DNA of 6,925 bases from Paraspadella gotoi. Lineage: Eukaryota; Animalia; Chaetognatha. The notes beneath the pieces were generated by a model, which was not told the origin of the DNA, did not search any database, and saw nothing but the letters and a program-made list of their open reading frames with translations. Positions 3,867 through 6,925 of this stretch are shown one piece after another (within the stretch, counting starts at the first letter, position 1; every line of letters begins with the position of its first letter). A program made the translations under genes and the position numbers. The stretch spans positions 1 to 6,925 of the forward strand of contig JBJCIZ010000078.1 of assembly GCA_051294375.1 (NCBI GenBank). The letters are read 5' to 3'.

Positions 3867-4130
3867 TCATCACGTATCAATGAATGACTAGCATCGCATC
3901 AAGGAATGACTATCATCGCATCAATGAATGACTACATCGCATCATATGAATGATTATTCATCGATCAATGATAGTGACTATCATCGCATCATATGAAATG
4001 GATTATCATTACGCATCAATGAATGACTATCCATCGCATCCATCATTTGGTTATATCGCATCTAAATACTTCGTTAATCGATCGCCTATCAATTATTGCG
4101 TTATCATCGCATCAATATTGGCTTATCATC
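3867..4130 (+). repeat. 22-bp minisatellite, about 11-12 degenerate copies, consensus TCATCGCATCAATGAATGACTA
   Basis: Head-to-tail CATCGCATC-core units. The first ~7 end in ..AATGAATGACTA and the last ~4 in ..AATATTGG(C)TTA-like tails. Confidence 0.92.
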
Positions 4131-4214: not shown

Positions 4215-4265
4215 ACCAAACCAAACAACCAAACCAAACAACGCGCATATCACGTCTATGCGCGT
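4215..4265. repeat. (ACCAA/ACA)n simple repeat followed by a perfect 9-bp GC-rich hairpin
   Basis: aaccaaaccaaacaaccaaaccaaaca, then ACGCGCATA-tcacgtc-TATGCGCGT (4241-4265). Confidence 0.75.
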
Positions 4266-4681
4266 CTACGTAGGTCAATTTTAAAAACAGATTTGGAATC
4301 CTCAAACTCATATTTACTAGTAACCTGACGATATCAAGTGACGGAAGTTCGGTTCTCTTATTATATCAAAAAGAAAAAAGAATTCTAATAATATTTTTAG
4401 TTAATATCTATCAATTTCAATGAAAAAAGAGACTCTAGATATATTGCATATGATTGAACAATGTTTTTGCAACAATAATTTTATCAATTTTATGTATTTT
4501 GTAAGTATTTTAAGTATTTTTATTCAGTGAGTAAAATAACAACTTTTTCATTCGCTAATTTTTAACTCGGACGCCAGACTTCCCTATATATAGGACAAAA
4601 GCTTGCTGGAATAAAATAAGATTAAATCATGAAAAAAGAAAAGGTGATTATAAACCAAAAAATGGTGACTCAATATTTTTT

Positions 4682-5179
4682 TTAATTTCTCTTTTCATCT
4701 GGTGAATGAGCAAAAGGGCACTCGTTTCCTCGCGAGCAGTTGTTCGAATAATGACATAATTTTCTCTTAAAATTTGAGGATTGTAGATTTTTTTCTGGGA
4801 CATTGTTTTCAATACTGTTTACAACTGACGTTCCCAGAAGCGAATCCATTTGCGACTTAAATCTGTGTTCCGTCAATAACCCGGTATTTTTCGCAATATG
4901 AAAACATCTGATCCCGTTTTGTATATATAATTCATAGAAAAAGTTGGCTCTTGATAAGTAATTCTTATATAAGTATTTATTGTTTTCAGAAAAATAATGC
5001 TTATTCAAAATGCTTTGTGCTTCATCAAATAGTGTCAAACCTTTTTGGATGTCACCGGTGTATCTCAATAAAGAAGCCCAGTTTGCGCAACAGCATTGCT
5101 CTTTCCAAATCTCACAATCTTTAGTGTAAATTTCGTTAGCTTTTTCGTACATCATACAGGCTTCGCTATGGCACTCATA
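4682..5179 (-). CDS. C-terminal part of the same protein: TPR-like helices + CCCH zinc finger
   Basis: Same frame as the upstream ORF: TAG(5182-5180), then YECHSEAC, then MMYEKANEIY... TPR-like segments HSEACMMYEKANEIY and ANWASLLRYTGDIQKGLTLFDEAQSIL. Ends FKRKLCHYSNNCSRGNECPFAHSPDEKRN, stop TAA at 4684-4682. Confidence 0.8.
   Translation of the reverse strand, partial: YECHSEACMMYEKANEIYTKDCEIWKEQCCCANWASLLRYTGDIQKGLTLFDEAQSILNKHYFSENNKYLYKNYLSRANFFYELYIQNGIRCFHIAKNTGLLTEHRFKSQMDSLLGTSVVNSIENNVPEKNLQSSNFKRKLCHYSNNCSRGNECPFAHSPDEKRN
4706..4771 (-). other. CCCH-type zinc finger (C-x5-C-x5-C-x3-H)
   Basis: FKRKL-C-HYSNN-C-SRGNE-C-PFA-H. The lead-in resembles (R/K)YKTEL-C and the core C.RG..C.FAH is typical of TTP/Roquin/Unkempt-like fingers. 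Confidence 0.85.
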
Positions 5180-6925
5180 CTAAAAGAAAATCTCCGTAAT
5201 CTTTATAATAACGGCCAATAAATGTATGTTTTCCAAGAATAAACTCTCCAAGACGCAGGAAAGACACTGCTTCACGCTTCGCTTCGCAGTTTCCAGCGAC
5301 TTTTTTTGGTTCTGTATGTCAAATCTTGACGTTCTCAAAAGTGTATGACATCCTATGTACACGAAATAGCATCTTGAAGTGATAAGGCTTTTTTCTGTTT
5401 CGACAAATTCAATTGGTCTTTTACTATTTATTAACGTCAAATTATTTGGCAATTTTACACAGAATTGAGATGCGGATTGCAGGTGTTTAAGAATCTCTTG
5501 GTTGTGCAAAAAGGATTTTTGCTTTGGAGGGACTTTCATCTCTGATTTAATTCTTGCAACTAGATAATGCATGAAAGATTTTAGGAACAAACCATCGATA
5601 TCTTCTTGAAGAGAACTTACATCGCTCAGTAGCATTTCTGCATTTTCCAAAGCCTTATCATAATTCCCATATCTTCTAATGTTATCAGCAATCATAGCTC
5701 TTGTAATTGTAACATTATTTTTGGTTCCTACTTTCAAAGAAATTCGTAAAAACCCTTCCAAAATACCATCATACAGCTCATGTTCATGGTTTAAAAACCA
5801 AGACAAATGATGAATTAAAATAGGTGACATATTTTTCCAAACAGAAAAGGCCTCATCGCATTTTTCGCTGATAATCCATTGGAAAAATGAATGACATTGA
5901 TTCTTTATCTGGAACAATATATGAACTTTGTTAGCTGACCCATTTTTTTTATTATAGCCTTGTAATAGACTTAATATGTGAGTTAAAGTCTCATCAACAA
6001 TTATTTTTCGGATAGATAATAGTTCAGATGAGTCAGTCTCTGCTTCTATACATTCCTTGACGTACCAATGAATATACAAAGTATTGTTCCTGTGATCTTT
6101 TCTCAATATACCTGATTTTTTTAATTCTTCAAGGTAAGTCAATTTATTTCTTGATTCAACGCCAAGTCGCTTTAAAATGTTTGAAAATAATTGGTCGTCT
6201 TCTGAATAGCAGGCAATCTGGCTTAAATAAATTAATATTTTACTTTTTTCAGCTGAAACATTTAAAAAACTTTCTGGTAGTTGACCTTGAAAATGTAATA
6301 CCTGTTCCATTATCTCATTTTGACTTGTTAAAACTAACTTAGTTCTATTATCGTAAGCCCCTAATATTTCTTGAAAATAATCAACATATTCTCTTGTTCC
6401 ATTTTTCAATATTATAAAGAGCCCAGTATGACTCTCAGAGCATTTATTTATACAATCCTTTATTAAAGAATTATATGCTTCCAGTGAATTTGGAATTGGT
6501 TGTTGAAAAAACCGAAGCAAGGCATTCTTGAAATCAATTACTGAATGAATTTTCGTCAAGTCAAAGAAAACAGTAAGATAACCGTCTTGTCTAAATAGGT
6601 GACCCAGTTTGAATGCTGTCAATGTTTTGTGACTTCCATGCCCGCCCCAAAAATTTAAAATTCTATTTCTTTCCAATAAACTTTTGGCTTCATTCACTAT
6701 TTCAGCAGCTACCCCTGAAGATAGTTCTGTGAAGTAAAACCCAAACCGTTGCTCGGCTTCAATGAGCTGCTCAATGCTTTTAACTGATTGTATTATTGTT
6801 TGCTTGATCTCTCGTAGTTGGGGCCGCATTTCCCAATCTTTTGCCAATGTGCGAAATATAATATCATTTAATAAATTTGGCCAAATATTTTCGCATGGAA
6901 TTTCTTTTTCTATGCTTTCTTTAAT
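5180..6925 (-). CDS. 5'-truncated NLR/STAND-like protein, N-terminal part: kinase C-terminal tail + degenerate NB-ARC-like NTPase + winged helix + TPR-like helices
   Basis: The frame of the 555-aa ORF stays open for 26 more codons to the window edge (IKESIEKEIPCENIWPNLLNDIIFRT-LAKDWEMRPQLREIKQ), so the TTG at 6847 is not the real start. Motifs: P-loop RILNFWGGHGSHKTLTAFKLGH, strand YLTVFFDL, Walker-B-like LFIILKNG, sensor-1-like KLVLTSQ, winged helix LEELKKSGIL...LYIHWYVKE, TPR-like RAMIADNIRRYGNYDKALENAEMLL. 581 stop-free codons in very AT-rich DNA. Confidence 0.85.
   Translation of the reverse strand: MKESIEKEIPCENIWPNLLNDIIFRTLAKDWEMRPQLREIKQTIIQSVKSIEQLIEAEQRFGFYFTELSSGVAAEIVNEAKSLLERNRILNFWGGHGSHKTLTAFKLGHLFRQDGYLTVFFDLTKIHSVIDFKNALLRFFQQPIPNSLEAYNSLIKDCINKCSESHTGLFIILKNGTREYVDYFQEILGAYDNRTKLVLTSQNEIMEQVLHFQGQLPESFLNVSAEKSKILIYLSQIACYSEDDQLFSNILKRLGVESRNKLTYLEELKKSGILRKDHRNNTLYIHWYVKECIEAETDSSELLSIRKIIVDETLTHILSLLQGYNKKNGSANKVHILFQIKNQCHSFFQWIISEKCDEAFSVWKNMSPILIHHLSWFLNHEHELYDGILEGFLRISLKVGTKNNVTITRAMIADNIRRYGNYDKALENAEMLLSDVSSLQEDIDGLFLKSFMHYLVARIKSEMKVPPKQKSFLHNQEILKHLQSASQFCVKLPNNLTLINSKRPIEFVETEKSLITSRCYFVYIGCHTLLRTSRFDIQNQKKSLETAKRSVKQCLSCVLESLFLENIHLLAVIIKITEIFF
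6065..6664 (-). other. Degenerate STAND (NB-ARC/AP-ATPase-like) NTPase module plus winged-helix domain
   Basis: Walker A GGHGSHKT (6646-6623), Walker B LFIILKN (6421-6401), sensor-1 LVLTSQ (6337-6320) and MHD-equivalent IHW (6073-6065) occur in the order expected for NB-ARC-type domains. Confidence 0.7.
6793..6925 (-). other. C-terminal end (subdomains X-XI) of a protein kinase-like domain
   Basis: IPCENIWPNLLNDIIFRTLAKDWEMRPQLREIKQTI resembles the kinase alphaH-alphaI pattern P..l.dli..cl..Dp..RP...ei, including the conserved subdomain XI Arg. The catalytic motifs would lie outside the window. Confidence 0.65.

Follow-up and report, generated by a model that had tools for sequence, protein, structure and literature searches.

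The window, as we call the whole 6,925-nucleotide stretch of the Paraspadella gotoi contig analysed here, carries one intact eukaryotic gene on its minus strand, running from the window's edge at position 6925 to a TAA stop at 4682 and interrupted in the window solely through assembly errors. Read in this direction, the coding frame contains two stops (a TAG at 5180-5182 and the final TAA), compared with 55 and 65 for the two alternative frames, and its stop-free run of 581 amino acids compares with a maximum of 209 amino acids among 300 base shuffles. Once four indels backed by public contigs are allowed, the frame (4682..6925) comprises 747 codons before the stop, remains open at the window's 5' end and requires no intron. 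The flanks are AT-rich and microsatellite-rich, and the genetic code is standard, features that indicate a eukaryotic origin.

The four indels, found only in the window, lie within 5085..5279. Relative to the window, Logan contigs from six public runs belonging to three studies have 5 letters fewer at 5275 (all six), 2 extra letters behind 5181 (five of the six runs), 1 extra letter behind 5111 (all six) and 1 letter fewer at 5085 (all six). The entry at 5181 is empty for run X4, yet its contig likewise has 9 gap letters altogether. These compensating changes have net effects of -3 and 0, and the frame is therefore continuous. In the window they produce a false TAG and two misframed stretches, leaving the translation used in the initial annotation off-frame at about 5182-5279 and 5085-5111. 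The single minus-strand frame described there thus holds, as one gene, and the one TAG interrupting it is an assembly error, absent from the genome. In X1, X2, X5, X6 and X8, the contig spanning the site has the frame-restoring letters at full depth, and the X1 contig shows 0 differences from the window over 5843-6925 and is therefore near the window's own haplotype. X5 and X6 each provide a single contig spanning 4519-6925 and extending 913 and 864 letters, respectively, beyond 6925, and the X1 contig extends 734 letters past this edge; X5, which may be RNA, resembles X6 in size and depth, is possibly the same data set, and was not taken as expression. An intron excising the TAG was also considered, as in-frame GT sites exist, but was rejected because the contigs restore the frame without one. 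For this assembly, stop codons should not be called as pseudogenisation without read support.

A single homologue (P0003) was found among 1.84 billion representatives, in a library where eukaryotic genes may be sparse. Wider protein searches, including a query with the two-sequence alignment, returned no further homologues, a pattern scan of 185,579 prokaryote genomes found none, and no related loci were detected in collections of metagenomes, viruses and prokaryote genomes, which are mostly prokaryotic, making these blanks weak evidence. The called start of P0003 lies only five residues before the point that aligns to the window's edge, a position that may stem from an error in gene calling or from an N-terminus that is short.

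The first 45 residues encoded in the window (6791..6925) resemble the tail of a protein kinase C-lobe, as judged from a profile match, an Atlas lead and a motif common to P0003. Within them, residues 13-39 (6809-6889) align with kinase subdomain XI, including its conserved Arg. The subdomain XI profile test, which used the 69 of 123 loci that gave a full-length stretch (the other 54 were too short and were dropped), scored the tail at 7.0 bits, a value attained by 1 of 1000 shuffles, with 77 control windows at or below 1.9. The tail of P0003 matches at the identical profile position (score attained by 8 of 1000 shuffles), and comparison by hhalign gave P 0.0014 with a probability of 17%. Because the kinases in this test are bacterial, the kinase group cannot be named from it. 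The top three ESM Atlas clusters for the tail were PK_Tyr_Ser-Thr (0.87-0.89), which we treat as a lead only; Pfam and PDB sequence searches made no kinase call on the tail. The tail is also the block best conserved between the window protein and P0003, at 38% identity compared with 26% over the first 220 residues. Together these data support, as a lead, the subdomain XI tail proposed from the sequence at the outset, and it likely belongs to a predicted protein kinase. No kinase catalytic motifs occur within the window, the VAIK, HRD and DFG motifs being expected beyond 6925.

Downstream of the tail, three concordant results identify, at modest strength, a P-loop NTPase of STAND/NB-ARC type at residues 74-235 (6221..6706). 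Pfam nSTAND3 matched at E 1.5e-4 in one scan and 1.6e-5 in another (25.1 bits against a cut-off of 27.2), all domain scores in this study falling below curated cut-offs. The ESM Atlas returned NB-ARC/nSTAND clusters at 0.91, with 9 of 10 family-bearing matches in one family or clan. The VIA structure match reached Z 7.6, within the tool's middling range, to ZAR1 (6j5t; rmsd 3.3, 109 aligned) and NRC2 (8rfh), equal to its match to Cdc6/ORC. The structure models had mean pLDDT values of 40 and 48; Foldseek found nothing at E 0.001 with the second model, and no usable match with a single-sequence model of residues 1-581 (pLDDT 39.7). PDB sequence searches gave nothing under E 0.1, one of them listing P-loop proteins alone (E 0.25-0.92), and an NCBIfam scan yielded nothing useful.

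These results support the NB-ARC-like motifs noted earlier as those of a STAND-type NTPase, in non-canonical form. The Walker A variant GGHGSHKT (6623..6646) retains the Lys and Thr of GxxGxGK[TS] but has His in place of the last Gly, directly before the Lys; P0003 retains Gly-Lys, followed by Met. The strand at 6401..6421, which we take to be Walker B by its position in the presumed STAND motif order, ends in Lys-Asn in the window protein and Arg-Asn in P0003, rather than the acidic pair of hhhhD[DE]. A probable winged helix follows (6059..6190). This element of the initial annotation is consistent with PADLOC CARF3/Csa3 matches over residues 194-316 (E 0.003-0.014) and Pfam HTH_56 (E 0.064), both weak, in a region where model confidence is under 50; a His motif that looks MHD-like by eye (6059-6076) closes it.

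The following helical region (4990..5720) contains about three TPR-like units by eye and is mostly helical in a low-confidence model. Pfam TPR_12 matched at E 0.038 and 0.065, far below cut-off, and in one of the four segments scanned, the correctly framed stretch having been scanned in pieces only, so that the TPR-like helices proposed earlier find weak backing here. All four assembly indels fall inside this region. Seven residues ahead of the stop, the protein carries a single CCCH zinc finger, C-x5-C-x5-C-x3-H (4706..4756). Five CCCH Pfam families match it, the best being zf-CCCH at E 7e-4 (19.8 bits; cut-off 20.5), and with the frame restored by the contigs the finger is real and in the same frame as the other domains, as first claimed. 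It is the sole loose CCCH spacing in the window's six frames, such spacing arising in 218 of 20000 shuffles. The three Cys, one His, and aromatic and Gly positions place it in the broad CCCH class; its spacing is not the C-x7/8-C-x5-C-x3-H of TTP and PF00642 and is Nab2-like rather than TTP-like. Basic residues lie upstream of it in the protein.

In X1 and X2, the kinase-NTPase half is represented by one sequence and the TPR/finger half by two to three versions that are 8-15% apart in places, mostly through amino-acid changes. Both runs contain a second version of 5293-5606 (8% divergent) and three versions of the finger region, and no second version of 4831-5069 was found among the pieces listed. 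In the C-terminal half, versions differ by 25 substitutions in 314 letters, 30 in 201 and 11 in 115, compared with 0 in 1083 letters of the N-terminal half of X1. The summed depths of the C-terminal versions (210 and 203) are about equal to that of the N-terminal half (209), and the gaps listed for the variant versions all add up to multiples of three, so that frames are kept. Differences in the finger comprise a His to Arg change after the first Cys and a Ser to Gln change after the second, together with the loss of 3 letters between these two Cys. Among the differences listed, the N-terminal half, in which synonymous sites make up 0.2 of the total, shows 9 synonymous and 8 non-synonymous codons (p 0.003), and is under purifying selection. 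The C-terminal half, again among the differences listed, shows 3 synonymous and 23 non-synonymous codons (Fisher p 0.005 against the N-terminal half), a ratio not significantly beyond neutrality (p 0.21), so that relaxed selection explains it equally well. X8 differs from the window at 15 of 916 positions in the N-terminal half and at 5 of 1108 in the C-terminal half, which indicates a mosaic of haplotypes rather than a simple gradient. Allelic variation, paralogy or the pooling of individuals may account for the C-terminal versions.

Judged from its sequence, the gene likely encodes an undescribed immune-type receptor. The reading we favour, at a probability of about one half, is an NLR-like receptor, encoded by one intact gene, in which a predicted kinase is followed by a degenerate STAND NTPase, TPR-like repeats and, at the C-terminus, a CCCH finger, and which acts through a ligand-triggered mechanism; the NLR-like interpretation already made in the initial annotation, which our results support, gains strength from how the C-terminal half varies. 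Extrapolating from STAND proteins, we propose that the end formed by TPRs and finger would recognise a ligand of foreign or damage-linked origin, a protein or ribonucleoprotein being the likeliest; the finger would serve as an integrated bait or an accessory RNA contact. Binding would free the STAND core to oligomerise, and the oligomer would gather the N-terminal kinase domains for trans-activation, leading to a defence or cell-death response; the core itself probably binds nucleotide with little or no hydrolysis.

Other readings share parts of this evidence. A PKR-like, RNA-activated kinase on an NLR scaffold, with a hydrolysis-dead STAND core, an active kinase and a swappable, fast-changing TPR-CCCH end reading viral RNA or RNP, appears unlikely to us. 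If true, it would represent a lineage-built eukaryotic PKR-like sensor that keeps several divergent sensor ends on a uniform kinase-NTPase chassis. TTP, ZAP and Nab2 use tandem fingers, compared with the one finger here, and variation of that finger between versions would be unexpected if it sensed an invariant RNA shape; being single, Nab2-like in spacing and version-variable, it would fit the role of a bait or variable accessory domain no less well than that of a conserved RNA sensor. We are accordingly doubtful that finger and TPR groove directly bind viral or aberrant RNA to turn on the kinase, even though the finger is real, in frame and preceded by basic residues. A parallel in favour of this RNA reading is SAMD9, whose STAND and TPR parts are followed by a C-terminal OB fold: the protein binds nucleic acid that is double-stranded, and its oligomerisation depends on the OB fold (PMC12015307, PMC5445408). 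Slightly less probable again is an N-terminus that is a pseudokinase or kinase remnant, which would leave the protein without catalysis, as a scaffold, helper or decoy partnering a second receptor. The Walker B acids are already gone from the NTPase in both known members, only the tail of the kinase is visible, and P0003 has its called start close upstream of the aligned region; however, the superior conservation of the tail is as expected for a folded C-lobe, and the contig extends at least 913 letters, enough for the roughly 230 kinase residues that, assuming a usual domain size, are missing upstream.

CCCH proteins act mostly in mRNA metabolism and the Cdc6/ORC folds match at equal Z, both of which would fit a non-immune signalling or RNA-processing protein, and the ratio among the C-terminal differences listed, being compatible with neutrality, would fit a duplicate whose C-terminal half drifts under relaxed selection. 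We nevertheless regard this as quite improbable, since the listed variant gaps keep their frames and homologues of a housekeeping gene should be numerous, whereas one was recovered, from a library with possibly few eukaryotic genes. The least credible reading, already largely refuted, is a pseudogene or a pair of separate genes divided by the TAG: the window does place that codon in frame behind a pyrimidine-rich stretch resembling a splice acceptor, but the full-depth contigs of five runs restore the frame, one of them near the window's own haplotype.

The favoured NLR-like receptor can be set against several known systems. Plants, fungi and bacteria all have known NLRs headed by a kinase, with thin direct evidence on how that kinase acts (PMC10952240); a compact single-exon gene with an integrated RNA-type finger and natural sensor variants would make it easy to test whether ligands drive kinase activation through a STAND scaffold and whether integrated bait domains occur outside plants. 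The PK-NB-ARC-LRR proteins of mosses and monocots, including wheat Tsn1, where kinase mutations abolish function, likewise place an N-terminal protein kinase on an NB-ARC switch (PMC10952240). Unlike them, the window protein has TPR-like helices rather than LRRs, ends in a CCCH finger and lacks the Walker B acids, and no homology to them was detected at the sequence level. In plant NLRs, zf-CCCH (PF00642) is among the ten commonest integrated domains of Brassica rapa; those proteins are NB-ARC-LRR, and the text mentions neither a kinase-TPR chassis nor the word 'kinase' (10.1101/2023.08.29.555307).

Fungal NLRs, built as effector-NB-ARC/NACHT-TPR/ANK/WD, have diversified TPR sensors under positive selection and PKinase among their N-terminal domains, and the term 'zinc finger' is absent from the main text of that source (PMC4986451). 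The nearest Atlas clusters to the window NTPase include basidiomycete NB-ARC/nSTAND1 proteins, but no near-identical internal repeats were seen in the window protein. Mycobacterial PknK and other bacterial kinase-STAND proteins are soluble Ser/Thr kinases that carry a STAND domain at the C-terminus (PMC4601284). Their roles lie in prokaryotic transcription and translation control. We know of no CCCH finger in such proteins. STAND and TPR modules also co-occur in animals, in the NB-ARC/NACHT-TPR proteins of corals, Hydra and placozoans, whose effectors are described as CARD, DED or Death-like rather than the kinase predicted here (PMC11359984, PMC6321704).

SAMD9, SAMD9L and their bacterial relatives share a STAND-like NTPase with a non-canonical Walker A, a TPR array and a C-terminal nucleic-acid-binding domain, and some bacterial relatives have an N-terminal Ser/Thr kinase (PMC5445408); nucleic-acid sensing is demonstrated for human SAMD9 (PMC12015307). 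That family has a Sir2-like domain before the NTPase, a Walker A without Lys and a C-terminal OB fold (PMC5445408), whereas the window protein retains the Walker A Lys, carries its kinase-like tail directly before the NTPase and ends in a CCCH finger. The initial annotation knew of no described protein with the full architecture, and we likewise found no description of the four-part fusion of kinase, STAND, TPR and CCCH in the literature searched; each pairwise link has published precedent.

The longest reading frame in the window lies on the minus strand, running from its last base at 6925 to a TAA at 4682-4684, with an interrupting TAG at 5180-5182. Over this stretch the frame contains two stops, whereas the remaining minus-strand frames have 55 and 65, and the longest stop-free length in 300 base shuffles was 209 residues. 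Nine public sequencing runs, from three studies, contain the stretch, and we compared contigs from six of them (X1, X2, X4, X5, X6 and X8) with the window. Relative to the window, these contigs have five letters fewer at 5275 (6/6 runs), two more behind 5181 (5/6), one more behind 5111 (6/6) and one fewer at 5085 (6/6); the 5181 insertion is not listed for X4, but its contig reaches the same total of nine gap letters. The first two indels together change the length by -3 and the other two by 0, and in the frames they imply all five stretches are stop-free, giving 747 codons in total. X1 contigs carry the frame-restoring letters at full depth, and 4519-6925 is spanned by one contig each in X5 and X6, runs that may be duplicate submissions of a single data set. 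The single frame described in the initial annotation is thus retained, while its TAG is an assembly error and that annotation translated about 5182-5279 and 5085-5111 in the wrong frame; by eye, the corrected stretches are more TPR-like. Since the four indels restore the frame, the terminal finger is read in the same frame and no intron is needed. The gene is real and intact, and it seems to be rare.

Outside this frame the window is AT-rich and carries microsatellites as well as two minisatellite arrays, indicating a eukaryotic source. The arrays are an 18-base tandem array at 1641-1970 (about 17.6 copies, 74% matches) and a 22-base minisatellite at 3869-4130. The latter is a genomic repeat of high copy number, since its summed contig depth reaches about 830,000 and that of the gene in X1 is 209. 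Many contigs of each of the four runs X1, X4, X5 and X6 lack single letters at 4031, 4131, 4148 and 4150, which again points to noisy indels or a varying copy number. In the same runs a dispersed repeat at 4220-4640, directly downstream of the gene's stop, has a depth far above that of the gene; it includes a minus-strand AATAAA at 4524, 160 letters past the stop, a weak signal in such AT-rich DNA.

Pfam and PDB sequence searches give no kinase call for residues 1-50 (counted from the window's edge at 6925), for which a kinase subdomain XI tail had been proposed. The top three named ESM Atlas clusters for this segment are PK_Tyr_Ser-Thr (0.89, 0.87 and 0.87, at the level of leads). A profile of bacterial kinases, built from 69 of 123 loci, places residues 13-39 on subdomain XI and brings the conserved Arg into register (7.0 bits, equalled by 1 of 1000 shuffles; 77 control segments score at most 1.9). 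Among 1.84 billion representatives the only homologue is P0003, a protein of 266 aa with 28% identity over residues 1-214 (E 4e-13), whose own tail aligns at the same place in the profile (4.1 bits, 8 of 1000 shuffles). The segment is therefore likely the end of a kinase C-lobe. P0003, a singleton ENA protein on an 1856-letter contig, has the same layout of kinase tail and NTPase (Pfam nSTAND3 E 1.6e-4, nSTAND6 E 0.003), so at least one distant lineage also has this fusion. Its called start, five residues upstream of the aligned start, is a caution on a candidate upstream catalytic domain, though starts are often miscalled on eukaryotic contigs. The public contigs extend at least 913 letters past 6925. 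Over the kinase-like tail at 6845-6925, X5 and X6 have extra depth (40 vs 15), absent in X1, X2, X4 and X8, which could reflect a related kinase gene or a low-complexity match.

For the NB-ARC-like NTPase several comparisons concur. Pfam nSTAND3 matches residues 74-235 (E 1.5e-4), and the isolated domain scores E 1.6e-5 and 25.1 bits, below the cut-off of 27.2; residues 45-400 adjoin NB-ARC/nSTAND clusters in the ESM Atlas (best 0.91). A model predicted from two sequences (pLDDT 47.7) matches ZAR1 and NRC2 (Z 7.6), Cdc6 (7.5), MLA13 (6.9) and Avs3 (6.7) over residues 97-217, middling scores that do not discriminate between STAND and the Cdc6/ORC clade. The profile, Atlas and model matches, taken with the domain order, make STAND the preferred assignment. 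In Walker A the Lys-Thr pair is retained and His replaces the final Gly. The Walker B strand finishes with Lys-Asn, or Arg-Asn in P0003; neither protein retains the acidic residue, which suggests poor or no hydrolysis. The proposed winged helix is weakly supported.

The TPR-like helices find a Pfam TPR_12 match in one segment (E 0.038-0.065) and no TPR match in three others. The terminal finger (4706-4756) matches five CCCH families, the best at E 7e-4, just under the cut-off; it is single, and its C-x5-C-x5-C-x3-H spacing differs from the x7-8 of TTP.

X1 and X2 contain a second version of 5293-5606 (25 substitutions and frame-keeping gaps) and three versions of the finger region: one window-like, one with 11 differences in 115 letters, and one with 30 in 201 and a gap of three letters. 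Over 5843-6925, X1 has a single contig with 0 differences from the window, at a depth of 209 close to the summed version depths (203 and 210). Alleles, paralogues or pooled individuals could each account for these versions. Among the codon changes listed, the kinase-NTPase half is under purifying selection, with 9 synonymous against 8 non-synonymous (p 0.003), and the TPR-finger half has 3 against 23 (Fisher p 0.005 between halves, whose change sets compare different samples), not significantly beyond neutral (p 0.21). A further 61 and 45 rows lie beyond those listed, and some of them are in repeats that are not part of the gene. Some changes fall inside the finger, none of those listed at its zinc ligands. 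Between X8 and the window the N-terminal half differs more (15/916 vs 5/1108). This variation is consistent with a receptor whose sensor end is variable, but it is not proof of positive selection. At seven places (5626-5657 and 5818) X1 and X2 have only non-window letters, six of them changing the residue, and X4, X5 and X6 agree with the window there. Behind 5872 a loose end of 27 letters occurs in one X1 contig. These haplotypes resemble mosaics.

We infer that the gene product most likely works as a STAND receptor: the TPR-plus-finger end would bind a ligand, the STAND core would then oligomerise, and the predicted N-terminal kinases would trans-activate. That the ligand is a protein or ribonucleoprotein and the finger serves as a bait or helper has a probability of roughly 0.5. 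Direct RNA sensing by the putative sensor end is rather unlikely, and a catalytically dead scaffold slightly less likely again. A non-immune or drifting gene is improbable, though the 3:23 ratio is compatible with neutrality, and a pseudogene or split gene very improbable, as contigs restore the frame at full depth.

We found no description of the four-part fusion, nor any paper with NB-ARC, TPR, CCCH and NACHT together, in the literature searched, mostly open papers without supplementary domain-architecture tables; because such tables could list it, its novelty is provisional. The accessible parts of PMC13449251, PMC8195603 and PMC12680541 hold nothing further on the kinase-NTPase-TPR-CCCH architecture. 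From the accessible parts of the sources, kinase-headed NLRs are known in mosses and monocots (PMC10952240) and in fungi (PMC4986451), a kinase and a STAND domain are combined in PknK (PMC4601284), and integrated zf-CCCH domains are common in Brassica NLRs (10.1101/2023.08.29.555307). The available text on animal NB-ARC-TPR proteins gives them Death-fold effectors (PMC11359984, PMC6321704), whereas the gene product has a kinase-like tail. SAMD9, as far as the available text describes it, is a STAND-TPR protein with an odd Walker A and a C-terminal nucleic-acid-binding fold, a kinase is present in some of its bacterial relatives (PMC5445408), and the human protein senses double-stranded nucleic acid (PMC12015307); the gene product instead ends in a CCCH finger. 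It belongs to the NLR-like STAND class, as neither a SAMD9 member nor a plant kinase-NLR.
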